Positions 2,673-31,750 of a stretch of 41,233 bases of DNA are shown here, one piece after another. Below the pieces are notes generated by a model that was not told the DNA's origin, did not search any database, and worked only from the letters and a program-made list of their open reading frames with translations. This DNA is from an uncultured Woeseiaceae bacterium. GTDB taxonomy: Bacteria; Pseudomonadota; Gammaproteobacteria; Steroidobacterales; Woeseiaceae. Each line of letters starts with the position of its first letter. Within the stretch, counting starts at the first letter, position 1. The stretch spans positions 14,522-55,754 of the forward strand of contig CAYWBZ010000001.1 of assembly GCA_964456535.1 (NCBI GenBank), read 5' to 3'. Made by a program: the position numbers and the translations under genes.

Positions 2673-4076
2673 TCAGCTCAATCCCAGGCGCGCTTGAATC
2701 TCGCGCTTGGCATCGCGCAGCACGGTATCGCGATCCAGGGAGTCCAATATCTGCTTCACTACAAGCTTCGGTCCTCCATCACCCCACGACTTTCCTGCCG
2801 CAAGATATTCGGCGGCCGCCTGACCGACGAGATAGGTGCTGTAGTATGCGATCGCTCCCTGGGCACCTGCAGTCAGTATCGTCGACAAACCGACTGTGCC
2901 GACCTTCAATGCACTGGACACGAAATGCAGTGCCCACACTGTTCCCATCAACGCAGCGGATTCGGCCATGATGACTTTGACGATGGACCCGGCCTCCTTC
3001 TGATTCAACGGCAGGTCATAGACTTTCGACAGGTGCACGACCATACCAACATCAATGAAGGCCGCCGCAAACAGATCCGCGACCGGTACCGGGTTAAAAG
3101 CGACAGCGATACCTTTGGCAACGCAGTAAGTGCGAACCATTTTTTCGCCGAGCTCACGTCTGGCAGCCAGTATTCGGCGACCAACCTGATCCGACAAGTC
3201 TGCTGCGAACAAGCTGGCATTCAACGCCGCCAGCGTCTTGCCCTCGGTTTCCAGTATTTCCCAAAGTTTTAGTCGTAGGGCGGCAATATCGGGATCACGT
3301 TGCCGCTGTAATTCACGTTCATTACCGTCTTCGTCGATCTCCAGCACGAGCTGCGGTCTCGGGTGTGCGGCGACGGTAATGACGTGCTCAGGATCGATAA
3401 TTCCGTCGGTCTTGTCGCGTACCGATTGCAGAAGCGCGTCTCGCTCAGCGCTCGTATACAAGTCTGACTTGTTTAACGCGAGCAAAATCGGCCGACCCTC
3501 TGCAATGGCAGCCTTGAGGGCGGCAAGCTCTGTGTCGGTGATATCACCGTCGATGACGAAGATCACCAGGTCGGATCGACCAGCGACTTCCTTCGCCAGA
3601 GACTCGCGATCCTCACCGCCGGCCTCATCCAGACCGGGTGTATCGATCAGGAAGACGCCGCCCACCTCCAGTTCATTCCAGGCCTGTATTTCAGAATGTT
3701 TGGTTTCCCCGTGCACCGGGCTGACAGAAAACCGTTCCTCGCCGATGAGTGCGTTCAGGAGTGACGATTTTCCTGTGCTAACGCGACCGAATGCTGACAA
3801 ATGCAAGTGACCATGTTCGAGCTTGTCGAGCATGGACTGAACAGCATCGTAGTCATGCGCAAGTGATTCGCGGACGCCGTCGGGCAGGCGAGCGTCATCG
3901 ATCAGATCGCGCAAACTCTCGCGCGCAAGACTCAGGTGCCCCGCACCATCGTCTCCAACCTTTTCAGTCGGCTTTTTCGTCCAGCGCCATTTTGGCAATG
4001 CGGCGAACGCCCGCGTCCAAATGCTCACTAATACCTTCCTCAAATTCTTTGGCCGCGGTTGCCGGAACCAGCTCAC
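2673..4076 (-). CDS. GTPase (HSR1/MMR1-type G domain) fused to a DUF697 (YcjF-like) membrane module
   Basis: G1 GRVSTGKS, G3 DTPG, G4 NKSD. The C-terminal part is hydrophobic and DUF697-like (AFNPVPVADLFAAAFIDVGMVV...). The start is uncertain: the first ATG overlaps the upstream gene by 113 nt, and alternatives are TTG at 3914 or ATG at 3833. Confidence 0.8.
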   Translation of the reverse strand: MSWFRQPRPKNLRKVLVSIWTRAFAALPKWRWTKKPTEKVGDDGAGHLSLARESLRDLIDDARLPDGVRESLAHDYDAVQSMLDKLEHGHLHLSAFGRVSTGKSSLLNALIGEERFSVSPVHGETKHSEIQAWNELEVGGVFLIDTPGLDEAGGEDRESLAKEVAGRSDLVIFVIDGDITDTELAALKAAIAEGRPILLALNKSDLYTSAERDALLQSVRDKTDGIIDPEHVITVAAHPRPQLVLEIDEDGNERELQRQRDPDIAALRLKLWEILETEGKTLAALNASLFAADLSDQVGRRILAARRELGEKMVRTYCVAKGIAVAFNPVPVADLFAAAFIDVGMVVHLSKVYDLPLNQKEAGSIVKVIMAESAALMGTVWALHFVSSALKVGTVGLSTILTAGAQGAIAYYSTYLVGQAAAEYLAAGKSWGDGGPKLVVKQILDSLDRDTVLRDAKREIQARLGLS

Positions 4077-5448
4077 CGTGTCGCTCCAGAGTCAGCACCA
4101 GGCTGCGTCCAAGCGCGTCGAAGATCAAACCATATGCAACCGCATGTGCCAGCCCACCTACTACAGTCCCCAGGCCGGGAAACGCCTTGAGTCCGTTACC
4201 TGCCACTGCCATTGATAACGGAAGCGCTCGTCCGACGCGACTCTGGCCCAGAGAGAGAAACTCTTCGACATCAAGATCGCGCGGTGCGGCACCGTAAATT
4301 TTGCAAAGCTCCTGCGTCATGGTTGTGCCGATATAGCCCTGCACCAGGATATCGGTGCCGGGGCTCACCGCTGCCATCGCGCCGATCACTGCTTTGCGTG
4401 TCGCGCTACGGATAATTTGTTCAGAGCGCTGCAGTCGATATTCACCCTCCGCAACCTCAAGTTTTTCCGCCGCGATTTGAAACACTGCTCGCTCTCTGCG
4501 TGCATCGAGCGGCTGAGTATCGTCACCGAGAAGCCGGTTAATTGCGACAACCAACACGCCGATATCTGCAGCCCTTTCACGCCGGGCCGTTCCCTCGCTG
4601 CCATCGGCACGACGTTCGACAACCTCCCTTTCGCCGCCTGCACTGACCGCAACAACATGGTCGCGCTGGACCTCGCCGCCCAGGTCGTCAATGCGCTGCA
4701 GCAGTTTTTGCATGAGCGTTGCTTGTTCGTCAGCGGAGTATCGATCCGCCTTGTTCAGTACCAGAACGATCGGTTTATCAAATGCCAGTAGTGATTTGAT
4801 AGCACCCAGCTCTGCCCGAGTGAGATCGCTGTCGCAAACAAACAGCACGAGGTGCGACCGCTTGGCTTCCTCGGACGCAATCTCATCCAGACCGTCTTCA
4901 TGACCACCGGTGCCAGGTACGTCAGTCAACAGGATTTCAGTGCCGGATTCATTTCGCCATCTGTAGTGCCGTACGTCGTCTGTCGATCCCCCGACGACGT
5001 CGATCACAACATTGGCTTCGGGCACCAACGCTTTAATCAGCGAACTCTTCCCTGCACTGATTTCGCCAAAAAAGCACAGATGAATCGCTCCGGTAGCTTG
5101 GCGAGCCGCCAAATCCTGCAGTTCCGCCTGAGCATCGCTAACGTCGACTCCGGCTGCCTCCGCCCGGTGCAGCCGCTCTTTTATGTCACGTCTGGAAAGT
5201 GGTTTTGAGAATTTGGCTGGCGCTACCTTCTGCTTTACGACAAGCCGCCAGACCAGCCAGACGGCAGCCATGGCCAACAACACCATGACCGCGATGTAAA
5301 CGTACATAATGGCTGGCGGGCCAGCCCGCAGGCGGTCCCAGACATTGAGCGCTGATTCAGTGATGAACAGCAACGCTCCCGTCGCTACAACAAAGGCGAG
5401 CGTAACGACAACCGCGATCGCGACGCGAATGAATCGATCAAGTTTCAT
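3964..5448 (-). CDS. Membrane GTPase (two N-terminal TM helices, HSR1-type G domain, DUF697 module)
   Basis: N-terminal TM segments (IAVVVTLAFVVATGALLFI and YIAVMVLLAMAAVWLVW). G1 GEISAGKS, G3 DVPG, G4 NKAD. C-terminal DUF697-like region (VIGAMAAVSPGTDILVQGYIG...). Confidence 0.85.
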   Translation of the reverse strand: MKLDRFIRVAIAVVVTLAFVVATGALLFITESALNVWDRLRAGPPAIMYVYIAVMVLLAMAAVWLVWRLVVKQKVAPAKFSKPLSRRDIKERLHRAEAAGVDVSDAQAELQDLAARQATGAIHLCFFGEISAGKSSLIKALVPEANVVIDVVGGSTDDVRHYRWRNESGTEILLTDVPGTGGHEDGLDEIASEEAKRSHLVLFVCDSDLTRAELGAIKSLLAFDKPIVLVLNKADRYSADEQATLMQKLLQRIDDLGGEVQRDHVVAVSAGGEREVVERRADGSEGTARRERAADIGVLVVAINRLLGDDTQPLDARRERAVFQIAAEKLEVAEGEYRLQRSEQIIRSATRKAVIGAMAAVSPGTDILVQGYIGTTMTQELCKIYGAAPRDLDVEEFLSLGQSRVGRALPLSMAVAGNGLKAFPGLGTVVGGLAHAVAYGLIFDALGRSLVLTLERHGELVPATAAKEFEEGISEHLDAGVRRIAKMALDEKAD

Positions 5449-5472: not shown

Positions 5473-5497
5473 GGAGTCGCGGCCTAAGGGCCGCTCC
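5473..5497 (-). terminator. Stem-loop at the DUF885 stop codon
   Basis: GGAGTCGCGGCC-TAAG-GGCCGCTCC, an imperfect GC-rich hairpin that abuts and overlaps the stop by one base. The T-tract is weak. Confidence 0.35.
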
Positions 5498-7290
5498 TAC
5501 AGTTGGGATGCTACCCAGCGGTCGAGCTTCGACTCCAGCATCGACAGGGGCATTGGGCCGTCTTTTAGTACCTCTGTGTGAAAGTCTTTGACGTTGAACT
5601 TGTCGCCCAGCGCCGCTTCAGCTTTGTCGCGTATTTCGCGAATCTTGAGCTGACCGACCTTGTACGCCAGTGCCTGCCCCGGAATGGCCATGAAGCGCTC
5701 AGCCTCCGATACGGCTCGTACTTCTGCTACGGCCGAGTTTGCATACATATAATCAAGTACATCCTGGCGTGACCACTGCTTGGCGTGAATACCGGTGTCG
5801 ACAACCAATCGAATCGATCGCCACAGTTCTGCGTTTAATCCACCGAAGTACTGGTAGGGATCCGTGTATACACCGAGCTCCTTGCCAAGCGATTCGGCGT
5901 ACAGTCCCCACCCTTCCGAGTAGGCCGTGAAACCACCGAAGCGGCGGAAGCCGGGCAGATCTTCGTTCTCGCGCTGAATCATGATCTGGAAGTGGTGACC
6001 CGGAATAGCCTCGTGCAGGAATAACGATTCCATCGCCCATTTGCCGCGAGCTTTTATGTCATAGGCGTTGGCATAAAAGATTCCAGGGCGCGAACCATCC
6101 GGTGTGCCCGCCTGGTAAGAACCCTTCGAAGCAGACGCCTCACGAAACGGCTCAACGCGGCGGACCTCAAAACCGGTCTTCGGCATGACATCAAACAGAT
6201 TCTTCGACAGCTCTGCAATATGGTCCGACATATCACGGTAGCCCTGAATGAGTTCCTCGGCTTCATCGTAGAAGAACTGGTCATCCGTATTAACGAACTC
6301 GAAGAACTCTTTGAGGCTGCCTTCGAAACCAACCTCCTCCAACACGCCGCGCATCTCTTCGTGAATACGCGCAACTTCATTTAGTCCGATCTGGTGAATT
6401 TCATCGGGCGACATATCGGTCGTCGTGCGCAGACGAACCATATACGCGTACCAGTCGGCGCCGTTCGGCTGTGCATAAAGGCCTACCGTTTCACGTGCCG
6501 CGCCTATGTACTCATCACCCAGAAAATTACTGATGCGTTGGTAGGCCGGAATAATTGTGTTACGGATTTTGTCTTCATACGCCGCGGTCAGCCTCGCGCG
6601 GTCTTCGGCGCTAAAGTCGTCCGGAATATTGGTAACGGGTTTGTAGAAGTTACTGTCTTTCACGTCATCGACAATATGCGCGTCGACCTGCGGCACCAGT
6701 TTTTCCATCAGAATACGAGGCTGAGTTACACCCTGATGCATACCTTCTTTCATGTTGCTGATGACCTGATCGATATTGATCGAGAACTGATCAGCACGAC
6801 TCAGGAAGTCCTCATAGTCTTTAACCGTATTGAAGGGGTGTGCACCGGTACCGCTGCCCAGTTGCACAAAGAAATTCGTCATCGAATAAAACTGATTGAT
6901 CGGTTGCAGGTGGAACGGGAACTGATTGCCTTCGAGGGATTGCTCTCTCCTGATCTTGAACAAATCGTAGCTCAGTTGATCCTGATAACTGAGTTGCTCA
7001 CGATCAATCTCCAGAAGCTGGGCGAGGAATTCCTCGTCCAACGCCGTCGCAGCAGCAATGTATTCGGGACTATTGGAGTTCGCCATTCGATCGTTGTAGC
7101 GATAGTCGCCGATAAACGTTGCGCTGATCGGATTCAACTCCAGATTGCGCTCGAAATGCTCATCAAATAGCGCGTGCAGTGCATCGCTGGCGCTAACTTC
7201 TGGCGCGACAGGCGCCGCCTGATCCTGTGTTTCGCCGCAAGCGGTAACAAGGAAAACGACAGCGAGCGTCGCTGCAGCAAGATTTCTCAT
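5497..7290 (-). CDS. DUF885 family lipoprotein (putative metallohydrolase)
   Basis: Signal peptide with lipobox (LVTAC). Conserved HEAIPGHH motif typical of DUF885. Length about 600 aa. Confidence 0.8.
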   Translation of the reverse strand: MRNLAAATLAVVFLVTACGETQDQAAPVAPEVSASDALHALFDEHFERNLELNPISATFIGDYRYNDRMANSNSPEYIAAATALDEEFLAQLLEIDREQLSYQDQLSYDLFKIRREQSLEGNQFPFHLQPINQFYSMTNFFVQLGSGTGAHPFNTVKDYEDFLSRADQFSINIDQVISNMKEGMHQGVTQPRILMEKLVPQVDAHIVDDVKDSNFYKPVTNIPDDFSAEDRARLTAAYEDKIRNTIIPAYQRISNFLGDEYIGAARETVGLYAQPNGADWYAYMVRLRTTTDMSPDEIHQIGLNEVARIHEEMRGVLEEVGFEGSLKEFFEFVNTDDQFFYDEAEELIQGYRDMSDHIAELSKNLFDVMPKTGFEVRRVEPFREASASKGSYQAGTPDGSRPGIFYANAYDIKARGKWAMESLFLHEAIPGHHFQIMIQRENEDLPGFRRFGGFTAYSEGWGLYAESLGKELGVYTDPYQYFGGLNAELWRSIRLVVDTGIHAKQWSRQDVLDYMYANSAVAEVRAVSEAERFMAIPGQALAYKVGQLKIREIRDKAEAALGDKFNVKDFHTEVLKDGPMPLSMLESKLDRWVASQL

Positions 7291-7311
7291 TTGGGAACCC
7301 CTGATTTGGAA

Positions 7312-8685
7312 TCAGGCGATCATAAACCCAAGGTCACGCTGTGCAAAGTTCGAAAGGTTGGGTGCAATGATATCAAGGTCCACATCCGGGATACCGAACC
7401 ATTTCGCCAGAGTTGCCGCGTATTGATCGGCCGAAGTCGACGGAATCATACGGCCGCCACCGACGTCCTCGGGGCCGCCGATCTCGAGAGTCGGGTAGGC
7501 GCCGTAAATATCCCGACCATTAACAGCGCCACCAAGAACGACCTGATTTCCGGCCCAGGCGTGATCGGTACCATCGCCATTGGAGGTCAGCGTACGGCCG
7601 AAATCAGACTGTGTGAAGGCGGTAACGTCTCCAGCAACACCGATATCGACAGTTGCGCTGTAGAATGCAGCCAATGCATCGCTGACACCGCCCAGGAGCC
7701 CCGGTTGATCCTGATTCTGGTTGTCATGGGAATCAAAGCCACCGATGCCGACAAAAAATACCTGCCGTTGCATATCGAGTTCGACCCGCGATGCAATCAG
7801 TTTCGCAACCGTCGACAGCTGCCGGCCGAGCGGCGTGCTCGGGAACGTGGTTGTGATGATTCCCGAATTTTCGGCACTGATAATCGCCGCCGAGACTGTG
7901 TCCGCTGCCGCCACCGCACGACTTTGGATTTCGGCGAACCCGCGCTCGTAAATGGAGCCATACTGCGCGTCGAGCACACCTTGAAATGCCGCTCGCTGAT
8001 CAAAAAGGATGCTGGTTGGATCGGTAGAAAATCCTTCGAACTGCAGCGGTCCGTCCTGACCCATGACGTATGCAATCGTGTTGTCCGCAGACTGGAACAG
8101 ACTGGTACCGGACACGGAGGCGTTGGTTGCCATCCTTTGATTGGCGACTTCTGCGCTAATCAGGTCCGCCATGCGTCCTGCCCAACCTGTCTTGCTTGTG
8201 TTGGCGCCCTTGAGTGAGTTCCACTGCGACTGCTGGTCGTTGTGCGAAAATAGTTGCGGCGGCAATACGACCGACTGATTTTCAAACTGTGTCTTTGTCG
8301 TTGGTTCAACGAGCGGACCAAGGTTTGCGACAAGAGCTGCGTTGCCGGACTCAAACAGTGTCTGCAAGCCACCCATTGCCGGGTGCAGGCCGAAAGCCTC
8401 CGAACCAGGAGTCTCCGACACAGGATTGATGGGTATCAAGTCAGCCCGGGGAATTGCCAGGTTCTGTCTTGACGCTGCGTATGCGTTGTACTCCGCATCG
8501 GTATTCGGTACCAACATATTGAATGAATCATTGCCACCGTGCAGAAACACACAAACGAGTGCACGATAGTCATTGAATGGCGCCGCCGCACCAAACCCTT
8601 GTGTATAGGCAAAACCTGGAGCGCTGACAAGTGCGGCGGCCGCACTGCTTTGGACCAGAAAATCGCGTCGATTGATCTTTTTCAT
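7312..8685 (-). CDS. DUF1501 domain protein (sulfatase/phosphatase-like fold), Tat-exported
   Basis: Twin-arginine leader [19 protein letters not shown]. Motifs [10 protein letters not shown] and GGFDSHDNQ are typical of DUF1501. Confidence 0.85.
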
Positions 8686-8712
8686 AATTCTTCTCCCGGC
8701 GAATCGCCGTGC

Positions 8713-10359
8713 CTAACGCTGGTAGGCGTACTCGGGTGACGTAACGATAAAGTAGATAGTTTCTGCAACTCGAATCGCCGCATCTGCTTCAGGTATAAGA
8801 GCAAGCATCCCGGCTATTTCATTTCGCAATGTTGTAGAGATCTCCCCGCCTAGAAGTTTGCCCGCGACCGAGTCAATTAATTGATCGATGTCCGCCGCGA
8901 TTGGCAACTCCGATTCGAAGTTGATGAACACGTCATCGGGCCGCAAAGTCTGATTGAGTGAATTCAACCGGAAAACTTGCCCAAACATATAGTTGGTGAC
9001 GAAGGTGTTTTGATATTCGGTCGCGATCTCAAGTTCCGGCGCGACCAGGTTAGCGTCCTGTATCTCGCCGGGTGGCGCATAAAAGGGACTGAAAAAATTG
9101 AAAACGTGCGACGCTTGCAACGGCCCTTGGCCAAATACGATATTGGCGAAGTTGAGAGGGTATCCACCACCATTGGACATTGCATCATAAGCGCGCCATA
9201 ACTGCGTCAGTCGTAACAACGGTTCCTTTATTTTTCCATCGCGTTCAGTTTGAACGGCCGGATGTGCTTCGGCATCCAGCAAGATCGCCTTCACAACCGC
9301 AGCAAGGTCACCACGCACTCCCGACCCATTGTTGTTAAATATGGCCGCAACACGCGACACATAAGCGGGCGATGGATTACTCGTGACCAGGCGATGAATG
9401 AGCCTGACCGCGATGAATGGGCCAACATTTGGGTGATTAAAAATATTATCGAGCGCAGTGCTTAGATCGGCGACACCACCTTGGCCCGCAAGTAGCAGCT
9501 CGCCGTTTAGAAGCGTTTTCGAGCCCGCATCATGGAATTCTTCCCACAACTCCATTGGGGTTACCTGGTTCCGTGGTGTTCCTCGCGCCTCCTGAAAACC
9601 AGGCGAATTGGCCCATGTCCATCCTGTGAAGACATGTGCGAAGCCTTCGATTATCTCCTGGTTGTAGGTAGGAATTGTGCGTCCCTGGCCGTCGAGTTTG
9701 TTGCTTCCGTCAGTGTTGAGCTCAACGAGACCGATGGAAAACAGCTGCATCAACTCGCGGGCATAATTTTCATCTGGCCGAATATTCAGAGCAGCGTTTG
9801 GCTTTTCGTTACCCAGCATGCTGAGATAAACGCCCATCGCGGGGTGCAACGTGACCTCCGCGATCAGGTCTCGATAATTTCCAAATGCGTTGCGCGCAAG
9901 CAGATCATAGTAGTCCGCTAACGCAAACGGCGCGTTATTTAGCGCGCCGAGCTGTGAAACGACCATTACCTCGGAGAGCGCGAACGCAACTCGTTGGCGA
10001 AGCTGGTCTTCACCATGCAGTGCGTTTCTAAACCAGATATCTACTCGATCGGCCTGTAGCTGAAACGGAAACTGTGGTGTCGGAACAGACTGCACGTGCG
10101 GTAGCTGCAACGACACTGGCTTCGTTATCTGGTCATCAATCCACGCCTCCTGACGCATCGCTATAACCTGGGTCGCCTCAGACTCGAGCGCGCCAAATGT
10201 TGTTTGATTCAGGAATTGAAATACTTCTGCCTTGGAAAGTGGCGTTGGCAGCGGCGGAGGTGGTGGTGGCGTCGGACCGGATCCGCCCCCGGAACCACCG
10301 CAACCGGCAAGACCAAGCAGTAACCATGCTGATAGTAAGATTAGTCTGTTCATACTCAA
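8713..10359 (-). CDS. DUF1800 domain lipoprotein
   Basis: Lipobox LAGC followed by a Gly/Pro linker (GGSGGGSGPTPPPPPPLP). Length is about 550 aa. It sits in the canonical position immediately upstream of DUF1501. Confidence 0.8.
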   Translation of the reverse strand: MSMNRLILLSAWLLLGLAGCGGSGGGSGPTPPPPPPLPTPLSKAEVFQFLNQTTFGALESEATQVIAMRQEAWIDDQITKPVSLQLPHVQSVPTPQFPFQLQADRVDIWFRNALHGEDQLRQRVAFALSEVMVVSQLGALNNAPFALADYYDLLARNAFGNYRDLIAEVTLHPAMGVYLSMLGNEKPNAALNIRPDENYARELMQLFSIGLVELNTDGSNKLDGQGRTIPTYNQEIIEGFAHVFTGWTWANSPGFQEARGTPRNQVTPMELWEEFHDAGSKTLLNGELLLAGQGGVADLSTALDNIFNHPNVGPFIAVRLIHRLVTSNPSPAYVSRVAAIFNNNGSGVRGDLAAVVKAILLDAEAHPAVQTERDGKIKEPLLRLTQLWRAYDAMSNGGGYPLNFANIVFGQGPLQASHVFNFFSPFYAPPGEIQDANLVAPELEIATEYQNTFVTNYMFGQVFRLNSLNQTLRPDDVFINFESELPIAADIDQLIDSVAGKLLGGEISTTLRNEIAGMLALIPEADAAIRVAETIYFIVTSPEYAYQR

Positions 10360-10382: not shown

Positions 10383-10802
10383 TCATTTTTGTGCGGCTAG
10401 TGCCTCTAGGTAAGCAATCTGCTCAGCGTTCAGCAGGTTCTTTAGTCTTACCAGCATCGCCATCTGCTTCTTCTTAACCTGGTTTTCTGCCAATAAAGCC
10501 TTGTTCGCGTGCTTCAACACTTTGGCCTCATTGATCGGTGCCTTGTCGAGCTCCAGCATTAGCGCCTGATACGCCTCTCGCATATCCCATTCGTGCTCGG
10601 CGACCCCGGACTGTACCTCTACGACAGCAGCTCGAATTTCAGTGAACTGCTGCTTCGTAAGATGGAGCTCCGCCTGCTGCTCCAGGATGATATTGGGGGC
10701 AAATAATTTACCCTTGAATACATCCGCCTTCAGGTTTTCTGCGAAAGCCGTGCCTGTTCCCAGACAGACGATCGCAGTGATCAATAAAAATACCTTTCTC
10801 AT
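10383..10802 (-). CDS. Periplasmic LTXXQ-motif protein (Spy/CpxP/ZraP/CnrX-like)
   Basis: Signal peptide ending in AFA. LTKQQ and LNAEQ motifs in a helical protein of about 140 aa. Its ATG overlaps the anti-sigma stop (ATGA). Confidence 0.7.
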   Translation of the reverse strand: MRKVFLLITAIVCLGTGTAFAENLKADVFKGKLFAPNIILEQQAELHLTKQQFTEIRAAVVEVQSGVAEHEWDMREAYQALMLELDKAPINEAKVLKHANKALLAENQVKKKQMAMLVRLKNLLNAEQIAYLEALAAQK

Positions 10803-11173
10803 AGTAACGCTCCTGCACTGGTATCGGTTGACTCGAAGATCCGTGGAATTTCCCGATATATGTCAAAGTGGTGTTCGGGGAGCAAAGCATCGCTGGGCGC
10901 CGACCAGTAAGTCGTCTCCACTAACGCCTCTACATCCACGTACGTAAATTCTTCTTTCTGTGCTGGCAGCAATCCGATCGCAAGCAGCGCAATTGCTGCG
11001 ACCGCCGCAGCACCCGCGAACTGCACTCTGCGTCTGTCTCGCACCGTGCGTTCTGCTGCACCGAATACTCTGCCGAAGTCCGGTGCCGAGCCATCTGCCT
11101 GCTGTTGTGCCTTCTGCAACGAGGCACTTAATTCCTGGTCATCTCTATTCATGATTGGAGTCTCTGCCATCAT
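10799..11173 (-). CDS. Single-pass membrane protein, candidate anti-sigma factor
   Basis: It lies directly downstream of the ECF sigma gene and overlaps it. One TM helix (AAAVAAIALLAIGLL). There is no Cys and no ZAS motif. The start is ambiguous (ATG at 11173, 11170 or 11152). Confidence 0.6.
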   Translation of the reverse strand: MMAETPIMNRDDQELSASLQKAQQQADGSAPDFGRVFGAAERTVRDRRRVQFAGAAAVAAIALLAIGLLPAQKEEFTYVDVEALVETTYWSAPSDALLPEHHFDIYREIPRIFESTDTSAGALL

Positions 11174-11675
11174 CGAGCTTTGCTCGTAACGATTTCTTGG
11201 CACGGTCGTAATGCACTCGGCCTGTACCGGTGGTGACACCCATAACTCGGGAAGCATCTTCTATGGTCATTTCGCGACAGAACACGAGTTCAATAATGTC
11301 TCGCTGGCGCTGCGGTAGTTCCTGCACGGCTAGCCACAGCCCCGGATTTTCATCCGTTGTCACTGCCGCGACCGACCTTTCAAGAGTGTTTCGCTCGACA
11401 ACCTGGACAAGGCGCATGCGCGATGCCATGCGGCGATAACGACCTTTCGCCAGATTTTGAATAACCGAGAAAACAAACGTCTTCAGCGAAGAACGTTCTT
11501 CGAACTTCGCTTTGCCGGTTAATAATTCAACGTATGCCTGCTGCACAAGATCCTCCGCTACCGTGCGATCAAAATCGCAACGGGAGAGAGCCCAACCGAA
11601 TACCTGGTCGTGCATGGCTTCCAATGCCGATCGAGATATGTGTGGATTTTTTTCCAGAACATCACTGTCTCTCAT
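11145..11675 (-). CDS. ECF-type RNA polymerase sigma-70 family factor
   Basis: Region 2 (DLVQQAYVELL) and region 4 HTH (RQRDIIELVFCREMTIEDASRVMGVTTGTGRVHYDRAKKSLR). GGGAGAGGG Shine-Dalgarno. Confidence 0.9.
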   Translation of the reverse strand: MRDSDVLEKNPHISRSALEAMHDQVFGWALSRCDFDRTVAEDLVQQAYVELLTGKAKFEERSSLKTFVFSVIQNLAKGRYRRMASRMRLVQVVERNTLERSVAAVTTDENPGLWLAVQELPQRQRDIIELVFCREMTIEDASRVMGVTTGTGRVHYDRAKKSLRAKLDDGRDSNHE

Positions 11676-11738: not shown

Positions 11739-13295
11739 TTAGCTGGGAGTGCGTCTTATGGTAAGTCCGAATGCAGTGCTACCGACACGAAAGCCAGATG
11801 CGGTTTGATGCAGGGTTAGTGAAATGGGTTCATCGCAACCCACCGGATGAAATACCAGCAGAATGGTGATGCCATGTTCTTCCGTATCCGAACGGTTGCT
11901 GACGCCAGCATCACATTGCACTATGAAACTGTCATCAACGAACGCGCCGAGATCATTGAGGCAATGCAAATAGGTCAGCACCTGGCCATGCAATCGAGTA
12001 GCCAGTGTGGCGTCTTCAGGCTCGAATACGGCCCAGCGAGTCGCCTTCGCGATCGTGTTGATTATTTGCAGACAGAAACGCCTCACCGGCAACTTCGAAA
12101 ATTTCGCGTAGGCCTCGCTACCACGGCCCATCGTGACGGACCCGGATAAGCGAGCCTTACCAATCGAACCACTCACAATGACATTCAGGCCTGCGCGCAT
12201 TAGCAGCGTTTCGTCGTCATCGCTTAACTCGTGCTCGGGCCTCAGCCTCCGGTGCAAGCCCAGACCTTGCTGATCGAGCATTTGCCACGGGCCATATGTC
12301 CGATCCTGTTTGCACAGCAGACCGGCGATCGCGCCACCGACCGGTCGTGCAACTCCATCATCATCACCTCGCACCCTGACTCGTGGAAAATAGCCGAGCA
12401 GGTTGGGGCTGGCGTAGCCCAGATCACGAACGCCGTTGATAGCCTCCCTTGCCGTTGACCAGTCAGACAACGGATCAACGATCAACATCGCACCGCGTTC
12501 CCGGCTGTATTGTTCAGCTGCAAGAATAGCTACTGGCCCGACATCCCTGCCCTTGCCAGTCGGTGGCAGGTAGAGCAGATCGAAGTGTTCAACATGATGC
12601 AGGGCGAACAAGCCACTTCGCTCGCGTCGCGATCCGATCAGATCGTAGTTTGAAAGTTCGGTCCCATCCGTGCCCGCTTGAATATGATCGATATAGGTAG
12701 ATTCATACGATCGACCGGACGCAGTCGTTCGCTCCGGGCGATGAGTCGGATACGGCTGTTCGACCTGCGCTATTTCCGACGCCCGCAGTTCATCGGCTAC
12801 GAACCTGTCGGAACCCTCTTCCCATGATAGTTTGCGAAAGAACTCCTGATCGATCACTGTGCCGACCGATGGGTTCACGCGCTGCAACGTAAGGTTGAAC
12901 AGGTCGTCGCTGTCTTCGTCAATGCCATCGAAATCGACGGCTGCGCGAATGAACTCTGTCGATCCTGGCTCTACTGCACGTAACACCAATGCAGAACCGC
13001 TCGCTGGCAAACACAGCATCGCACCGCGCGCATTATTGGCTACGCGAATGACATACAGCCGTTTACCACCATGATCAAAGAACTGTTTTGCGGCCGGTCC
13101 GAGACTTGATCGTCCCCAGACATCACCGAAACGACGGCGAAACTCGCCAAAGTTAGAAACCAGAAGCGGTGAATTCAAGGGACCACGAAGCGCACGGCCA
13201 ACGAAAGCGGCCGTGGTTTCTGGGCAAGCATCGACGGGTTGATCCATCGCTGCGATTTCTGTGACCGTGATACCGCGGTCAACTGCATCTGACAA
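11739..13295 (-). CDS. Diverged phage tail sheath family protein (orphan)
   Basis: The N-terminus (RGITVTEI...TTAAFVGRALRGPLNSPLLVSNFGEFRRRFG) and C-terminus (LPVRRFCLQIINTIAKATRWAVFEPEDATLATRLHGQVLTYLHCLNDLGAFVDDSFIVQCD) follow the Phage_sheath_1/1C pattern. TTG start with GGAGA 5 nt upstream. Confidence 0.7.
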   Translation of the reverse strand: MSDAVDRGITVTEIAAMDQPVDACPETTAAFVGRALRGPLNSPLLVSNFGEFRRRFGDVWGRSSLGPAAKQFFDHGGKRLYVIRVANNARGAMLCLPASGSALVLRAVEPGSTEFIRAAVDFDGIDEDSDDLFNLTLQRVNPSVGTVIDQEFFRKLSWEEGSDRFVADELRASEIAQVEQPYPTHRPERTTASGRSYESTYIDHIQAGTDGTELSNYDLIGSRRERSGLFALHHVEHFDLLYLPPTGKGRDVGPVAILAAEQYSRERGAMLIVDPLSDWSTAREAINGVRDLGYASPNLLGYFPRVRVRGDDDGVARPVGGAIAGLLCKQDRTYGPWQMLDQQGLGLHRRLRPEHELSDDDETLLMRAGLNVIVSGSIGKARLSGSVTMGRGSEAYAKFSKLPVRRFCLQIINTIAKATRWAVFEPEDATLATRLHGQVLTYLHCLNDLGAFVDDSFIVQCDAGVSNRSDTEEHGITILLVFHPVGCDEPISLTLHQTASGFRVGSTAFGLTIRRTPS

Positions 13296-13379
13296 ACCTG
13301 TCTCCGAACCTGGTCAGATAAGCGTTGCCACATTCTAAACATTCGCGATCAAGTGTGCACTTGGTTAATCTCGACGATC

Positions 13380-14432
13380 ATGGCTGATTACCTGGCAAAC
13401 GCATATCCGAGGCTCGCGGGAAAACTGCGAAAGTGCTCGTTTGCCTCGTTACCAACGCCGATTTCTCATCACGAGATAAAGCTGCCCTCCGGAACTCGCT
13501 CCCTGTCGGTCAAACATGATGACCAGACCGGTGACATCTACGGCGGCAACAAAGTCCGCAAACTTGAATACATTCTGCAACGTGCGCAAGATCGTGGTGC
13601 AGAACGTATCGCGACGTTCGGCGCGGTTGGCTCGAATCATGCATTGGCGACCGCCATTTTTGCCAGGCAATTCGGTTTTGACTGCACGTGCTTTCTGGCA
13701 CATCAAAAACGCACGCCGAATATTCCCAGGGCGCTCAACATGCATCTCAAACTCGGCACCGAACTTGTGCGTTATGGTGGCAGCATTGACCGGCTTGAGC
13801 TGTTTCGGCGCTATCTACAAAACCGCAAGACCTGGGTCATTCCATTGGGCGGTACCTGTTGGCTGGGCGCAATCGGATTCGTCAATGCCGGGCTTGAGCT
13901 TGCGGCACAGATCGATTCCGACGAACTCGAAGCGCCCGACCGCATTTACATTGCCAACGGCACGATGGGCAGCGTTGCAGGACTTGCTGTCGGAATCGCC
14001 ATAGCAGGGTTGCCGATCGAAATTCACGCCGTACGAGTCGCCGATAATCGATTTGCGAAGCGGGAAGTACTTGATCGCTTGATGATCAAAACGACCACGC
14101 TACTTAATCGTCTGGATCCTTCAATCCCACTCGAAGCAGCAACACGAACCAGAGTTATCTGGCGAGATGATTTCTATGCGGGCGGCTATGCGGCGGTTGA
14201 TGACGTAACTACTCGTGCCGTTGAATTTGCGAGGGATGCTCTGGGGCTTACTCTTGATACGACATATACAGGCAAGGCGATGGCAGCGCTATTGCACGAT
14301 TTGGAGGTGAGCGATGAGGGTACCTCGACACTCTTCTGGAATACCTACAATTCAAGACCGCTGCCATCCATCGATAGTGACAGGCTCTCACTACAAGACC
14401 TGCCAGAGCAATTTCGACGATATTACGAGTGA
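13380..14432 (+). CDS. PLP-dependent ACC deaminase / D-cysteine desulfhydrase family enzyme
   Basis: GGNKVRKLEY signature with the PLP lysine. Length about 350 aa. The ATG at 13380 is preferred over the upstream GTG at 13353. Confidence 0.85.
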   Translation: MADYLANAYPRLAGKLRKCSFASLPTPISHHEIKLPSGTRSLSVKHDDQTGDIYGGNKVRKLEYILQRAQDRGAERIATFGAVGSNHALATAIFARQFGFDCTCFLAHQKRTPNIPRALNMHLKLGTELVRYGGSIDRLELFRRYLQNRKTWVIPLGGTCWLGAIGFVNAGLELAAQIDSDELEAPDRIYIANGTMGSVAGLAVGIAIAGLPIEIHAVRVADNRFAKREVLDRLMIKTTTLLNRLDPSIPLEAATRTRVIWRDDFYAGGYAAVDDVTTRAVEFARDALGLTLDTTYTGKAMAALLHDLEVSDEGTSTLFWNTYNSRPLPSIDSDRLSLQDLPEQFRRYYE

Positions 14433-26738: not shown

Positions 26739-28436
26739 TCAGGTCCCTGGAGGCATCAGGGGTGGCAATGGACTATCCATTGCCGCCTCAGTGTCTTCCA
26801 TCAATACGCCGATTGATCGAAGCGCCTTGGCTAGCGAACTCCCATTCCACTCTGAAGCACCACTTCCGTAGCTGCTGGCCGACAAGTTAAGCAACTCTTC
26901 TGACAGCGGCGATGCAACTCGTTTCGCAACATCTGCGACACTCCGCGGTGCATCGTCGGGCCATTGTAATCGGCCCCACTCAATTACCGCCGCGCGAACG
27001 CCGGCCTTGTCATCCGCCGCCGCAGCCTTTCTCGCAGCTTTGACGAACTTTGCCTGCTGCTTGTAGATCGGTGGGGGCTCCGGTTCTCTGGGCTCTCTTT
27101 TCGTTTCCCTGGACGACCACCACCAAGCCACCACGGTTAGCAACCAGACGCCCGCGATGAGCAGACTAACCCGTTTCCAGAATCCGTCGGGCGCGGGTTT
27201 GGCCTCAGGCTGGTCTGCACGTCCGTTATTGGCCAATTCGGCGTATTCCGGTTCCGCGGGCGGCGGAAGGATCGCTTCCGCAACAGGCGCATTAATTTCG
27301 ATCGTTCTTGATGGCAGACTTGCGATGCGCCACTCGCCCGTCTCGATATCCCACCACGGGACCTCAAGCTTGGGAATTTCTGCAGGCCCGCCACGCACAC
27401 CGATCATGGCGTACTGGTCTCTGCGTACACCGCGAATTCCCTCTGCCTCGAAAAAGCGCGTTAGATCCGGCTTGTCCGTGTATACATTCATGCCTTCAAT
27501 AACCGGCGGCTCAATCGCAGGAATTTGTGTTTCGATCTGGCCCAGTGCGCTGATCGTTACCTTGCGTGTCACCGGCTCGCCGGCCGCAACATCGTTCGGC
27601 TCTCTCGACCATTCCTCGCTGAGCCGAACATCTCGCGCTGGCAACCAGGCCGCATCGGGAAAGTCCGCAGGCGGTGCGGGAATCGGCAGTACCTTTACAG
27701 TATGTGCTTGTGACTCGAAGACCTTGCGACCCGTAATACGCCCATCACGCAATACGCGCGCTTCGAACCGCGCCGGCGAAATCGATATCTCGCCGCTCGC
27801 CTGCGGATAGATCGCGAGCACGCGTTCGATAACGTTATAGGCTTTGCCGTCCAAAATAGCTTCGTAACTGCGCTCATCACCCGCACGCTCGACCAGAACT
27901 TCGGCACCTGAAATAACCGGATCACGTCGCCCTTCCTGACGCGTTGCTACCGCCCGATAGACCTTGAACCGGTACAAAATTTGCGACTGCACGTAGGCCT
28001 CGGTCTGGTCGACTTCGCTGGAGATAAAGACGTCGGCTTCACCAGGAGGCGCGTTGGTCGGCTCGTTAATCGTGATAGAGATCGGCTGGCTCTTTTGATT
28101 GCCAACCGTGATCGCGGGAATCACCTGCTTACCGGTCGACTTCGCCATCAACGCTATCGTCCAGGTCCGACTACGGCGTATCTGGCCATTAATGATCGAT
28201 GTATTACTGAGTTGACTGAGCTGGCCACGATAGAACTTGTCGTCCAGTACCGTGAGGTCCGGCTCCATATCGATATTGGTATCGACGGTGAGTTCAAGGA
28301 CGAACGATTCGTTAAGGTCGACCGACGGACGATCTATCCGCGCTGTAACGTCTGCAGATGCATTCGTGACGACAGTGAGCAGCCCACACAGACCTAAAAG
28401 CGTATTGCGGATGAGTTTGCTATTAATCATTACCAC
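26739..28436 (-). CDS. batD: BatD-like protein
   Basis: Signal peptide, large beta-rich ectodomain, one C-terminal TM helix (LLIAGVWLLTVVAWWW). It is the terminal gene of the Bat-type operon. Confidence 0.75.
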   Translation of the reverse strand: MVMINSKLIRNTLLGLCGLLTVVTNASADVTARIDRPSVDLNESFVLELTVDTNIDMEPDLTVLDDKFYRGQLSQLSNTSIINGQIRRSRTWTIALMAKSTGKQVIPAITVGNQKSQPISITINEPTNAPPGEADVFISSEVDQTEAYVQSQILYRFKVYRAVATRQEGRRDPVISGAEVLVERAGDERSYEAILDGKAYNVIERVLAIYPQASGEISISPARFEARVLRDGRITGRKVFESQAHTVKVLPIPAPPADFPDAAWLPARDVRLSEEWSREPNDVAAGEPVTRKVTISALGQIETQIPAIEPPVIEGMNVYTDKPDLTRFFEAEGIRGVRRDQYAMIGVRGGPAEIPKLEVPWWDIETGEWRIASLPSRTIEINAPVAEAILPPPAEPEYAELANNGRADQPEAKPAPDGFWKRVSLLIAGVWLLTVVAWWWSSRETKREPREPEPPPIYKQQAKFVKAARKAAAADDKAGVRAAVIEWGRLQWPDDAPRSVADVAKRVASPLSEELLNLSASSYGSGASEWNGSSLAKALRSIGVLMEDTEAAMDSPLPPLMPPGT

Positions 28437-30256
28437 GGTTGTACCTCATTGTCTGGCCACACACTGTTGCCGTCCTGATCTTTTCCGGTGCGCTGGTACT
28501 GATGCCTGAATTTCCTGCGTAACAAGCCGCCCGGATCGTCCGGAATGCGGCGCAGCCATTGTTCCATCGCCTGTTCTTGTTCTTGTTGCTGCCGCAATTC
28601 GGCAAGCTCTGCTTCCGTCATTTGTTGTGGCTGCTCGCCTGCTTCGGCCTCTTTTGCAGCGCGCTGCAATTCTTCCTGCAATGCCTGCATGTCTTCTTCG
28701 CTCATTTCGTCGCCGCTTTCTGACGAGTCACTTTCCTCAGATTTGCTGTCAGTCTGGGATTCACCTTCTTCGCCCTGTTGGTCGGACTGGTCCTCTGAAT
28801 CCGATTGCTCGCCTTCACCGCCCGGATTTTCGGTCGACTGTTGATCATCTCCCTGATTTTGCTGCTCTTGTTCCTGTTGCTCTTTCATTCCCTGCACAAG
28901 CTCAAGGTTGTAAGCCGCATCCTCATTGTCGGGCTCGACTTCGAGCACCCGCTCATAGGCATCAATCGCCGCATCAAGTTCACCCTGATAGGCCTTCGCG
29001 TTGCCGAGGTTGTAGAGATTTCGCGTATCTTTTTTCTCGGAAAAGACCTTGGCGCTACCCGCGTAGTCGCCAGCTTGATAGTCAGCAACGGCCTGCCAGT
29101 CCAGGCTCTCAAATAATGCCGCCGCTTCGCTGGCGTTACCGGCCTCAAGTTGCTTCTGTCCCTGCTGATCCTTGTTCAGCCAGAGGTCACTCCACGTCGC
29201 TGCAAATGCGGGTTGTGGCATCGGCATGATGAAAATAATCACAACCAGTACCCAGCCACGACGAAACGCCAGTGCTGCAAGCGGCAGCAATAACAGTAAC
29301 AACCAGGGTCCTTCCTCTTGCCAGCGATCAGTTGCCAGAGCGTCATCACCCATAGCAGCGCCGGCACCGGAAATTTCGCCGGACAATAAAATATCCAGGT
29401 CTTTGTCGTCCGCTGAAATGCGTGAGTAGCGACCACCACCTGCACCGGCGAGCGTACGCAAGCCGCGCTCTTCCAGTCTGGGCACCGCGATCTGGCCGCG
29501 GTTGTCGGTCACAAACCCACCCGTTACTCGAGGGATCGGTGCGCCTTCAGTCGTACCAACACCCAAGATTGACAAGGTATAACCTGCTGCTTTGAGATCT
29601 CGTGCCGCCGCGGAGGCTGCTGGCGAGGAGCCTCCATCGGTTATCAGCAGTACTTCTCCGTAACCGGCTTTAGCCTGATCAAGCAGTTGCCTGCCTTTTG
29701 CAATGGCAACCTCCGGGTAGCTGCCACGGCTTGGCATGATATCGGTACCCAGGCTGTTAACCAGCGATGCAATGGTGTCGTTATCGGTGGTCAACGGCGT
29801 GACGGTAAAGGCATTGGCCGAATAAACCACCAGTGCTGTCTGGCCGCTCTGACGGCGTTCGAGCATATCGAGAATCTTCAGTTTGGCACGCAGCAGGCGA
29901 CTCGGCGCGACGTCCTGCGCATCCATGGAGCGCGACAGGTCGATCGCTACGACGAGCGCCTGCTCGTCCCTGAAGACCGGTTGTTCAATACGTTGCCATG
30001 CGGGCCCAGCCAGAGCGACCAAAGCGATCACACCGCCGAGCCCCATCAACCACCAACGGTGATCGGTTCCGCGACCCGGATCGCGAGACAGTACGTACGG
30101 CATAAGTACGGGATCGATAACCGCTTGCCAGTTGCCGGAGCCCAGTTTGCCGCGCGCGAGCAATACGGCCAGCACAACAAGAACCGGTATTGCGTACAAC
30201 CACTCGGGGCGTATCCAGTGAAAGTCAGCTGGCACTGGTTTGCACCTCGCTGGCAC
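28430..30256 (-). CDS. VWA + TPR protein (BatB/BatC-like fusion) with an acidic C-terminal tail
   Basis: N-terminal TM helices. MIDAS motif DLSRSMD. TPR repeats (YNLGNAKAYQGELDAAIDAYERVLEVEPDN). Long Q/E/D/S-rich tail. Confidence 0.85.
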   Translation of the reverse strand: MPARCKPVPADFHWIRPEWLYAIPVLVVLAVLLARGKLGSGNWQAVIDPVLMPYVLSRDPGRGTDHRWWLMGLGGVIALVALAGPAWQRIEQPVFRDEQALVVAIDLSRSMDAQDVAPSRLLRAKLKILDMLERRQSGQTALVVYSANAFTVTPLTTDNDTIASLVNSLGTDIMPSRGSYPEVAIAKGRQLLDQAKAGYGEVLLITDGGSSPAASAAARDLKAAGYTLSILGVGTTEGAPIPRVTGGFVTDNRGQIAVPRLEERGLRTLAGAGGGRYSRISADDKDLDILLSGEISGAGAAMGDDALATDRWQEEGPWLLLLLLPLAALAFRRGWVLVVIIFIMPMPQPAFAATWSDLWLNKDQQGQKQLEAGNASEAAALFESLDWQAVADYQAGDYAGSAKVFSEKKDTRNLYNLGNAKAYQGELDAAIDAYERVLEVEPDNEDAAYNLELVQGMKEQQEQEQQNQGDDQQSTENPGGEGEQSDSEDQSDQQGEEGESQTDSKSEESDSSESGDEMSEEDMQALQEELQRAAKEAEAGEQPQQMTEAELAELRQQQEQEQAMEQWLRRIPDDPGGLLRRKFRHQYQRTGKDQDGNSVWPDNEVQPW

Positions 30257-31259
30257 GGCGAACAGCGATTCGCTTCAAGAGGCTGATCAGGCTCATCAGG
30301 GTGACCAACAAGACCGCCAGACCCAATGGATAAAAGTAGTACGACTTAACTGGCCGAAATCCTGACTCGGGCTCCTCGACGGGCTCAAGCTCATCAACAA
30401 GCTTATAGATGTCCTGCAAACTCGCCGTATCGGTTGCCCGAAAATAGCGACCACCGGTCAGCTGCGCGATCTGGGTCAGCGTGTCTTCGTCGAGATCCGC
30501 TGACGGGTTGATACGGCGCCGGCCACCAATGAGTGAGGACACTTCGAGTTGTTCGGCACCGATACCAATCGTGTAGATGCGCAAGCCGACCTGCTGCGCG
30601 AGCTGCGCCGCTTTGAGTGGCTGCACTTCGCCCGCCGTATTAGCGCCGTCGGTGAGAAGCACCAGAACCTGCTCGCCCTCATCTTTCTTTTGCTCATGTA
30701 TGCGACGGACTGCCAATGTAATCGCATCACCAATCGCCGTCTTTTCGCCCGCAAGGCCGATGAAGGCTTCCATCAACAGAATATTGACGGTCTCTCGATC
30801 CAGCGTCAGTGGCACCTGCAGGTAGGCGCGCTCGCCGAACAAGATAAGTCCTATGCGATCACCTTCGCGGCGCTCGATGAAGTCGCTGGCTACCGCCTTC
30901 GTTGCCGTCAACCGGTCAACACGCCGACCAACGAGCTCAAAGTCTTTCTGATCCATGCTGCCCGACAAATCCACTGCCAGCATCAGGTTGCGACCAGCGA
31001 CCGGTACATCAAGTTCTTCGCCAATGCGTTCCGGACGCGCGGCGGCGAGGACCAGCAGCATCCATGCGATGACTGCAATCCAGAAACGCCAGTTGAGTAA
31101 CTGCTCTGTCCCCGAGCGATCCTTGAGCGTCGAAAAACTCTCGATGCTCGGTACGCGCAGGCCTGCCTCGGACAGGCCTTTGGCCTCCGGCAGCAAATAG
31201 CGAAAAATCAGCGGCAACGGCAGCGCGAGCAAGACCCAGGGCCAGGCGAGAGACCACAT
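30225..31259 (-). CDS. VWA domain membrane protein (BatA-like)
   Basis: N-terminal TM helices. MIDAS motif VDLSGSMD. C-terminal TM helix. Confidence 0.85.
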   Translation of the reverse strand: MWSLAWPWVLLALPLPLIFRYLLPEAKGLSEAGLRVPSIESFSTLKDRSGTEQLLNWRFWIAVIAWMLLVLAAARPERIGEELDVPVAGRNLMLAVDLSGSMDQKDFELVGRRVDRLTATKAVASDFIERREGDRIGLILFGERAYLQVPLTLDRETVNILLMEAFIGLAGEKTAIGDAITLAVRRIHEQKKDEGEQVLVLLTDGANTAGEVQPLKAAQLAQQVGLRIYTIGIGAEQLEVSSLIGGRRRINPSADLDEDTLTQIAQLTGGRYFRATDTASLQDIYKLVDELEPVEEPESGFRPVKSYYFYPLGLAVLLVTLMSLISLLKRIAVRRASEVQTSAS

Positions 31260-31750
31260 CAGCCGGCACCCCGGATCGGCGTAGCCAGACGCATTCTTAC
31301 AGCAGCCAGTAGTGCGTTGATATCAAGGTCGCTGAAATCGCCGTCGGGATCCCGGTACGGCAGCTGCAGAAGGCTCTTGCCACCCTCTGTATGGAAATAC
31401 GGCACTGGCAAACCCTGATCCAGCCATTTGAGCCAGGAATCGCCTGTGAGGCCGGCAACTTCGTGTCGCGGTGCATAAGCGAGCATGCCACGGCGCAATA
31501 GCAGAGAAACCTGCCGGCCCAGTGCGACAGGGTTACGATTTGTGAGATATTCAGCCTCAACCTCCGCCAGAGCGCGAATCGCATAGCGACGTGGTGCGTT
31601 GAATCGCCGCTTTCGCCACGCAAGCAACAGCAACCAGCCAAGCCCGAACAATGCGAGTGCGATGAGCAGCCACCAACCCGGCGCCAGTGGCCACCAGCCT
31701 ACGGGTTCAGGCAGGTGTAAATCTCGCAAGCTAAGCTGGGTCGGATCCAT
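31259..31750 (-). CDS. DUF4381 domain membrane protein
   Basis: Single TM helix (WWLLIALALFGLGWLLLLAW). It occupies the conserved position between the DUF58 and VWA genes. Start and stop overlap both neighbours. Confidence 0.7.
   Translation of the reverse strand: MDPTQLSLRDLHLPEPVGWWPLAPGWWLLIALALFGLGWLLLLAWRKRRFNAPRRYAIRALAEVEAEYLTNRNPVALGRQVSLLLRRGMLAYAPRHEVAGLTGDSWLKWLDQGLPVPYFHTEGGKSLLQLPYRDPDGDFSDLDINALLAAVRMRLATPIRGAG

Follow-up and report, generated by a model that had tools for sequence, protein, structure and literature searches.

A solitary contractile-sheath-fold gene at a conserved housekeeping position in Woeseiaceae and related Gammaproteobacteria

What does a contractile sheath do when no tube gene lies beside it? 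This question is raised by a gene for a protein of 518 amino acids, encoded on the reverse strand of a 41,233-nucleotide stretch of DNA (the window) from an uncultured Woeseiaceae bacterium (contig CAYWBZ010000001.1 of assembly GCA_964456535.1, positions 14,522 to 55,754). To our knowledge, every characterised sheath protein works within a multi-gene contractile machine: a myophage tail, a tailocin, an extracellular contractile injection system (eCIS) or a type VI secretion system (T6SS). An earlier note, drawn up from the letters of the window, had described the gene product as a strongly diverged sheath homolog standing without tube, baseplate or spike genes, and had proposed exaptation. Full-text searches of the literature found no published description of a solitary sheath homolog, or of a tail sheath in Woeseia. 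The computational analysis presented here leads us to regard it as probable that the gene encodes a domesticated protein of contractile-sheath fold, independent of any tube/baseplate injection machine.

Sheath homology and predicted fold

The protein is a true homolog of contractile sheaths and is predicted to share their three-domain fold. The PHROG 23 'tail sheath' profile matches its residues 4–501 with E=2.9e-30. The profile of the orthologs, run against sheaths of the PDB, gives a best E of 1.4e-30, and its matches to 8bky, 8bl4 and 9ezm (E=1e-30 to 1e-26) span the N-terminal (7–100) and C-terminal (217–501) parts. In the hidden Markov model (HMM) alignment with 8bky only these residues align and the middle domain differs. 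The profile checks proposed in the earlier note came out in two ways: PHROG 23 and the PDB sheaths gave significant matches, whereas the match to Pfam PF17482 is partial (residues 397–470) and below the cutoff (22.6 against 26.9 bits), and PF04984 is not matched. No NCBIfam family matches the protein. By itself, Pfam would miss the sheath homology. The sequence strings quoted in the note as the sheath pattern of both termini are present in the protein, and the two blocks that it had called degenerate, TYGPWQMLDQQG and LSGSVTM, fall in the alignment where related sheaths have the canonical blocks RGVWKAPAG and WGARTL.

Structure prediction required a diverse alignment, since AlphaFold run with the 31 Woeseiaceae orthologs only (70–95% identity) gave an unusable model with a predicted local distance difference test score (pLDDT) of 53, whereas the AlphaFold2 (AF2) model used here, based on 88 sequences of 33–95% identity, has a pLDDT of 87.1 and a predicted template modelling score (pTM) of 0.86. 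All of the top 50 Foldseek matches of this model in the PDB (50/50) are contractile sheath subunits, so that the absence of any sheath-family match, which the note had named as the outcome that would speak against it, did not occur. The best match is 9ezm (E=1e-27, TM 0.68/0.71 over ~510 columns); others are the sheaths of T4 (gp18), P1, phiCD508, Lin1278, Streptomyces coelicolor CIS, Pvc2, Afp2 and the R-pyocin. The sequence profiles, the comparison with PDB sheaths and the model thus bear out the description of the protein as a diverged sheath homolog.

The best matches by both profile and structure are found in the contractile injection systems (CIS) of S. coelicolor (8bky, 8bl4, 9gtp, 9gts) and Halogeometricum borinquense (9ezm), with TMt 0.82 and a root-mean-square deviation of 3.3 Å for 9gts_2A. 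Identity of these solved CIS sheaths to the protein is 18–21%. According to their PDB titles they belong to assembled systems (sheath-tube, baseplate, cap), partners that are not encoded near the window gene. T4 gp18 (9mkb, 3j2m) is also matched structurally. The sheaths of Afp/PVC-type eCIS (Pvc2-4, Afp2-4) and of the R-type pyocin (PA0622) have the inner-domain fold in common with the protein (Foldseek E=1e-12 to 1e-14, profile E=1e-12 to 1e-3). They are shorter (~350–450 aa) and match just its C-terminal part, from about residue 260–320. Sheaths of the Afp/PVC type and of R-pyocins are, as far as we know, always encoded in multi-gene clusters.

The solitary clade and its conservation pattern

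An exhaustive search among 1.84 billion representatives returned 6094 relatives of the sheath-like protein. More than 120 clusters (formed at 90% identity) share at least 70% identity with it; all are ~515–518 aa long, and those with an organism name belong to Woeseiaceae. The best full-length relatives at 33–50% identity also lack the canonical blocks, and canonical sheaths, with their GVWKAPAG, WGARTL, FEPN and KCD motifs, first appear at ~30% identity. The proteins of ~505–550 aa, all of which are without the canonical GVWKAPAG and WGARTL blocks, are referred to below as the solitary clade. Its degenerate-motif subgroups comprise a Woeseia type, a Lentisalinibacter type (group 11), a Steroidobacteraceae type of ~541 aa (group 14) and groups 13, 7 and 12. 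The carriers span two orders, Woeseiales and Steroidobacterales, as well as other Gammaproteobacteria, and some of those with a name are in culture (Lentisalinibacter spp., Peristeroidobacter agariperforans and Steroidobacter sp.). The notion of an isolated oddity of one genome has to be abandoned, as the gene belongs to a large and old clade of positional orthologs with this distribution. Members of the clade are often annotated automatically by JGI as 'phage tail sheath protein FI' or 'Bacteriophage tail sheath protein'.

A neighbour-joining tree places 30 canonical and 70 solitary-type proteins on opposite sides of a split that 192 of 200 bootstraps (96%) recover. This is apparently a large, undescribed clade, separate from the nearest canonical sheaths. 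The latter are three-domain tail sheaths of eCIS/phage type, ~500–530 aa long (P0208, P0219 and P0221 are examples), which occur on IMG/VR contigs beside gp19-type tube genes. They have ~30% identity to the window protein over the full length and the same three-domain layout. Both have a homologous outer domain (PG.WG..LR..VD / FNL), an N-terminal AFVGR..RGP and a C-terminal RR..L.I..S...GT.WAVF / F.V.CD. In contrast, the motifs RGVWKAPAG, WGARTL and FEPN together with ~40 further near-invariant positions are confined to canonical sheaths, as are the tube gene immediately downstream and the occurrence in viral contigs; the solitary clade has neither these residues nor this context.

Region-wise conservation was compared between 67 solitary-clade and 28 canonical representatives. 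In canonical sheaths the conservation peaks at positions 321–490 (0.62–0.92), whereas in the solitary clade the same positions are relaxed to 0.25–0.63, and to 0.25–0.52 from position 331 onwards. At 44 positions where conservation among the canonical representatives is 0.85 or above, the solitary clade has lost or replaced the residue; these positions cluster at 334–349, 374–391, 401–436 and 470–489. The inner-region motifs RGVWKAPAG, WGARTL, FEPN and the C-terminal P..PAE are not retained. Conservation of the RGVWKAPAG block falls from 0.86–1.0 in canonical sheaths to 0.13–0.30 in the solitary clade, and W384 and R387, conserved at 0.96 among canonical sheaths, are replaced. The best-retained sheath signature is the block VRRFCLQIINTIAKATRWAVFEPED, in which R406 and W421 are kept in both clades; the AF2 model places a helix at residues 402–418. 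At the same time 14 positions, mainly in the outer domain, have newly become invariant in the solitary clade. Among them are E114, D123, Q138, R139, Q150 and T190, which are clade-specific residues of the outer domain and invariant columns in three clade alignments, as well as Y201 and D216/Y217/D218.

As judged from the alignments, the constraint is inverted with respect to canonical sheaths: the inner C-terminal region is relaxed and the outer domain carries new invariant polar residues. In sheath structures the C-terminal region forms the inner wall, which touches the tube and the neighbouring subunits, and the outer domains are normally variable. For this reason we infer that the pattern fits a loss of tube-lattice constraints together with a new function on the outer domain.

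The N-terminal arm GITVTEI, which aligns to residues 7–13 of 8bky, is 100% invariant across the 31 Woeseiaceae orthologs as compared to 0.80 for the whole protein, and the C-terminal arm (498–509) is conserved at 0.89 as compared to the same 0.80; the last 9 residues reach 0.47. In the AF2 monomer the arms are poorly ordered: residues 1–11 have pLDDT below 50 and block 11–20 a mean of 65, while at the other end a strand is seen at 502–506, block 501–510 has a mean pLDDT of 66 and residues 508–518 lie below 50. That the arms are so conserved in Woeseiaceae hints at a contact between molecules, for example the 'handshake' of sheath subunits.

Locus, selection and absence of tail partners

In 12 Woeseiaceae genomes the gene is full-length and occupies the same position, in the order OmpA / LipA-SohB-M48-methyltransferase-YkuD / PALP (divergent) / sheath-like gene / ECF sigma, anti-sigma, LTXXQ / DUF1800-DUF1501-DUF885 / two GTPases, where ECF stands for extracytoplasmic function. 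The Nei-Gojobori ratio of nonsynonymous to synonymous substitution rates (dN/dS) is 0.05–0.10 against seven orthologs and is indistinguishable from that of the neighbours (LipA, SohB, M48 and others). The GC content at the gene equals the background without anomaly. With the solitary-clade profile 0 relatives were found in IMG/VR viral contigs, whereas the nearest canonical sheaths have 497 relatives there. The low dN/dS, the conserved position, the background GC and the lack of viral-contig relatives support the view that the gene is under selection and is not a decaying prophage remnant. The note had held that missing conservation in relatives, with signs of decay, would speak against it; gene and neighbourhood are kept and no such signs are seen.

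The surroundings are of the same kind outside Woeseiaceae. Steroidobacteraceae have YkuD, an M1 peptidase and a rhomboid protein before the sheath-like gene; P. agariperforans has YkuD, M48, GT4 and a Zn-peptidase on one side and cobalamin genes on the far side; for representative P0302 the order is YkuD, rhomboid, sheath-like gene. In group 13 oxoprolinase, an SSF transporter, PALP, Ogt, PlsB and the GTPase pair are found nearby. The metagenome loci of group 7, whose proteins have 31–37% identity to the window protein on contigs of 50–71% GC, keep the OmpA-LipA-SohB-M48-YkuD block around the gene, and because the block is kept at such distances these members are positional orthologs over a deep divergence. 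When the Pfam families of 125 flanking open reading frames (ORFs) at 21 metagenome loci are counted, YkuD, oxoprolinase, M48, PlsB, PALP and M1 peptidase come first, and no tail family is among the families listed. The context is solitary and of housekeeping type in every locus examined. We considered whether the protein is linked in function to PALP, the divergent enzyme, or to YkuD, and rejected this, as their recurrence is explained by synteny of the whole block.

Three conserved ORFs, d1–d3, follow the sheath-like gene on the same strand in group-7 loci (L023:11670-12308, 12215-12988 and 13050-13871), with equivalents in 16–22 other loci of this group. No Pfam or PADLOC family matches d1 (212 aa) or d2 (~220–257 aa), and d3 resembles a lipoprotein and matches SAM-methyltransferases weakly. 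None of the three has a homolog in the window, in Woeseiaceae or in Steroidobacteraceae loci.

The note's statement that the 41 kb contain no tail partner genes and that the flanks are of core type is supported by Pfam scans and by a tube HMM. The window scan with Pfam covered 36 larger ORFs (35 of at least 150 aa and one of 101 aa) and found housekeeping-type families only, with no tail genes and no integrase family among them. The gp19-type tube HMM has no match in any window ORF of at least 60 aa. In the window and the 100 loci of the solitary clade together (1.30 Mb), this HMM gave 0 matches in 11,172 ORFs, whereas it gave 99 matches in 71 of the 80 canonical loci (1.03 Mb). In the canonical control the ORF following the sheath gene encodes a gp19-type tube in 8 of 8 loci (PF06841, E=1e-32 to 1e-46), and at locus L109 a T4_baseplate ORF comes right after that of the tube. 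T6SS families were not found in the window or the loci examined; the sheath-like protein is of phage/eCIS type and consists of a single chain. No PADLOC defence family matches it at E<=0.01. Scans of the window for tRNA and Rfam elements found nothing, and together with the background GC this gives no indication that the gene was inserted recently.

The reading of the gene as an intact ORF for 518 aa with a TTG start and a GGAGA Shine-Dalgarno agrees with the ORF coordinates and with direct inspection of the sequence. The TTG start is favoured because the opening residues S2, D3, A4, V5 and D6 are kept among the orthologs. In the consensus scan the number of sigma-70-like promoter matches is not above the shuffle expectation, and the one upstream of the gene (Table 1) is a pattern match alone. 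The 63-nt distance to the ECF sigma ORF on the same strand, given in the note, is exact.

The link of the gene to the ECF module holds in part: adjacency is confirmed, but synteny in relatives is restricted to Woeseiaceae. Most loci of this family have the module after the sheath-like gene. At L007 and L009 it is deleted, with remnants of the anti-sigma 3' end (L007:11546-11900, L009:11540-11780), the sheath-like gene is intact and the DUF1800-DUF1501-DUF885 trio follows it directly; L004 (10181-10783) appears to keep just the 3' part of the LTXXQ gene. The module is absent from Steroidobacteraceae, group 7, group 13 and every other non-Woeseiaceae lineage sampled. Being specific to Woeseiaceae, deleted in two of their loci and absent elsewhere, the module does not define the function of the sheath-like gene. 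No terminator-like hairpin was found in the 63-nt gap, so read-through from the gene into the ECF operon is possible in this genome, as a secondary association. Within the module the longest ORF for the putative anti-sigma has 113 nt in common with that of the ECF sigma; the start in the window lies probably near 11150, because the ortholog at L013 (113 aa) starts 8 nt inside the end of the sigma gene.

On the other side, no immediate neighbour is as constant in Woeseiaceae as the divergent PALP gene (12 of 12 loci), which is also found near the sheath-like gene in the other-lineage loci L019, L020, L072, L074 and L099. The PALP gene is likelier to start with an ATG at 13380 (MADYLANAY...) than with the GTG of the longest ORF, which probably lies too far upstream; the divergent intergenic region would then measure 84 nt and not 57 nt. 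The trio DUF1800-DUF1501-DUF885 (5497-10359) lies directly downstream of the ECF module, and an overlapping pair of GTPases (2673-5448; MMR_HSR1/dynamin-like, one with DUF697) accompanies the sheath-like locus both in Woeseiaceae and in distant lineages (L019, L072, L074 and L099). The families found in the window comprise, besides these GTPases and the trio, a DsbA-like protein, ECF sigma, the PALP enzyme, an ArsR-type HTH protein, a YkuD L,D-transpeptidase, a methyltransferase, M48 and S49 peptidases, LipA, an OmpA-like protein, a HAD hydrolase, the BatA-D/MoxR operon, an aminotransferase, FdhD and NuoE/F-like proteins. The operon (26739-33656, reverse strand) is a complete BatA-D-like one of aerotolerance type, with MoxR AAA_3, DUF58, DUF4381, two VWA proteins (one with TPR) and BatD; its MoxR is the sole AAA+ ATPase of the window and is unrelated to ClpV.

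Table 1. Coordinates of the sheath-like gene, its regions and its immediate neighbours in the window.
Feature	Position	Strand	Basis or remark
Solitary sheath-fold gene	11739..13295	-	518 aa, TTG start
GGAGA Shine-Dalgarno	13301..13305	-	5 nt ahead of TTG; direct reading of sequence
Sigma-70-like promoter match TGCACA-16-TAGAAT	13332..13359	-	upstream of sheath-like gene; consensus scan
N-terminal arm GITVTEI, residues 8-14	13254..13274	-	counterpart of canonical PGVYVEE
Outer insertion domain, residues ~85-200	12696..13043	-	conservation comparison and invariant columns
Degenerate block TYGPWQMLDQQG, residues 333-344	12264..12299	-	replaces canonical RGVWKAPAG; alignment of 99 representatives
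Degenerate block LSGSVTM, residues 383-389	12129..12149	-	replaces canonical VWGARTL; alignment of 99 representatives
C-terminal long-helix block VRRFCLQIINTIAKATRWAVFEPED, residues 404-428	12012..12086	-	PF17482 partial match 397-470
C-terminal arm, residues 498-509	11769..11804	-	conservation and AF2 model
ECF sigma / putative anti-sigma / LTXXQ-like module	10383..11675	-	lineage-specific downstream neighbour
ECF sigma	11145-11675	-	Pfam Sigma70_r2 and r4
Putative single-pass anti-sigma	within 10799-11257	-	module member
Secreted LTXXQ-like protein	10383-10802	-	module member
PLP-dependent enzyme, PALP fold	13353..14432	+	divergent neighbour; PF00291 E=1.4e-25

A sheath without a tube

Exaptation, as proposed in the earlier note, is the best reading of a gene which is solitary, intact, under purifying selection and without partners nearby. 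Members are single genes at a conserved housekeeping position in Woeseiales, Steroidobacterales and other Gammaproteobacteria alike, and this distribution indicates vertical descent from one ancient capture. The protein would be cytoplasmic, because its N-terminus, as read from the sequence, has no signal-like hydrophobic stretch, and its function would be independent of a tube. Self-association via the sheath-type terminal arms, which are invariant in Woeseiaceae and disordered in the monomer model, is probably retained, and we hold this with lower confidence than domestication and tube independence. A functional analogy would be the polysheaths (T4 gp18, TssBC of T6SS), in which sheath subunits self-assemble without a tube via the same inter-subunit contacts. 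Complete machines give rise to polysheaths as aberrant or contracted-state by-products, whereas the gene described here stands alone and is kept by selection. The re-constrained outer domain probably binds a cellular partner or ligand, and the protein may act as a scaffold or an oligomeric structural protein and not as an injector; in Woeseiaceae some extra read-through into the ECF sigma operon may come in addition, as a secondary trait. A more far-reaching and tentative proposal is that the protein represents a bacterial cytoplasmic polymer or scaffold of a new kind, captured once from a CIS or a phage in an ancestor of Woeseiales and Steroidobacterales, self-assembling without a tube by means of its conserved terminal arms and organising a cellular partner by its re-constrained outer domain.

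The main alternative is that the gene encodes the displaced sheath of a working CIS or tailocin whose tube, baseplate and spike are encoded elsewhere in the genome. The sheath fold complete over three domains, the arms highly conserved in Woeseiaceae and the intact ORF under selection would be expected of such a gene. However, the nearest canonical sheaths have their tube downstream (8/8 loci by Pfam, 71/80 by HMM) and the solitary clade has it in 0/101 loci of ~±10 kb around the gene (41 kb in the window); the 44 near-invariant positions lost are those of tube-associated relatives and lie mainly in the inner C-terminal region; and the housekeeping position is fixed over two orders, while CIS clusters are sporadic and mobile. 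A displaced gene is for these reasons improbable. The same fold and subunit-contact arm sequences, combined with the loss of inner-region motifs and with the abundance of the nearest canonical relatives in viral contigs, might also point to a decoy acting in defence, i.e. a tube-blind subunit which co-assembles with the sheath/tube proteins of a myophage or CIS and poisons tail assembly. We consider such a role unlikely: PADLOC finds no match, no defence-type neighbours recur in the census of flanking ORFs, and the gene evolves slowly and is inherited vertically in a stable core neighbourhood and not in a variable island, whereas defence genes are typically patchy and fast-turning.

It has also to be considered whether the protein is an envelope-stress component that works with the signalling module, its gene leading an operon which continues with the ECF sigma, the anti-sigma and the periplasmic protein. 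The common strand, the 63-nt gap without a terminator-like site and the many recurrent neighbours related to the envelope (YkuD, M48, SohB, OmpA-like, rhomboid) agree with this, but the module occurs in Woeseiaceae only, is missing from Steroidobacteraceae, groups 7 and 13 and other loci, and at L007 and L009 has been deleted down to remnants beside an intact sheath-like gene; moreover, the protein has no signal-like hydrophobic N-terminal stretch. This explanation is improbable. Finally, the loss of motifs invariant in functional sheaths and the failure of the tube HMM to find partner genes could be taken as signs of a non-functional relic, the last uneroded piece of a decayed prophage or CIS. 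This is most improbable and is effectively refuted by the selection and conservation data: dN/dS is as low as that of LipA, SohB, M48 and the other neighbours, the ORF is full-length in 12/12 genome loci and in hundreds of clusters (~505–550 aa), the locus is the same across lineages of 50–71% GC, new invariant residues have been gained, and the composition is that of the host.

Several points weigh against a domesticated, tube-independent protein, or against parts of this reading. The absence of tube and baseplate genes covers ~±10 kb per gene (41 kb in the window) and not whole genomes. The tube HMM was built from canonical tube ORFs and detects the gp19 type only, and other tube families are excluded just where Pfam annotation existed. 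The tree is unrooted and contains the 100 best full-length representatives only. Three representatives on its solitary side (P0186, P0203 and P0211) have partly canonical motifs: 'APAG' is present in all three, and a block resembling 'W.ART' in two. These proteins may be transitional or may have branched off early. Outside Woeseiaceae the arms are conserved on average only (0.57–0.58 as compared to 0.64 overall), which makes retained polymerisation uncertain.

Domestication of the sheath fold, which we prefer, would provide a clear example of how one component of a viral machine is exapted by itself: a sheath-fold gene is kept alone, at a fixed position and under strong purifying selection, in at least two orders of environmentally abundant Gammaproteobacteria. 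The automatic annotation 'phage tail sheath protein FI' could yield false predictions of prophages or CIS in genomes of Woeseiaceae and Steroidobacteraceae. The locus raises a testable question, namely the role of a sheath without a tube, and the cultured carriers (Lentisalinibacter spp., Peristeroidobacter agariperforans and Steroidobacter) make the protein experimentally tractable. If the polymer or scaffold proposal is true, a viral contractile protein would have been exapted, as a single gene, into a core structural role.

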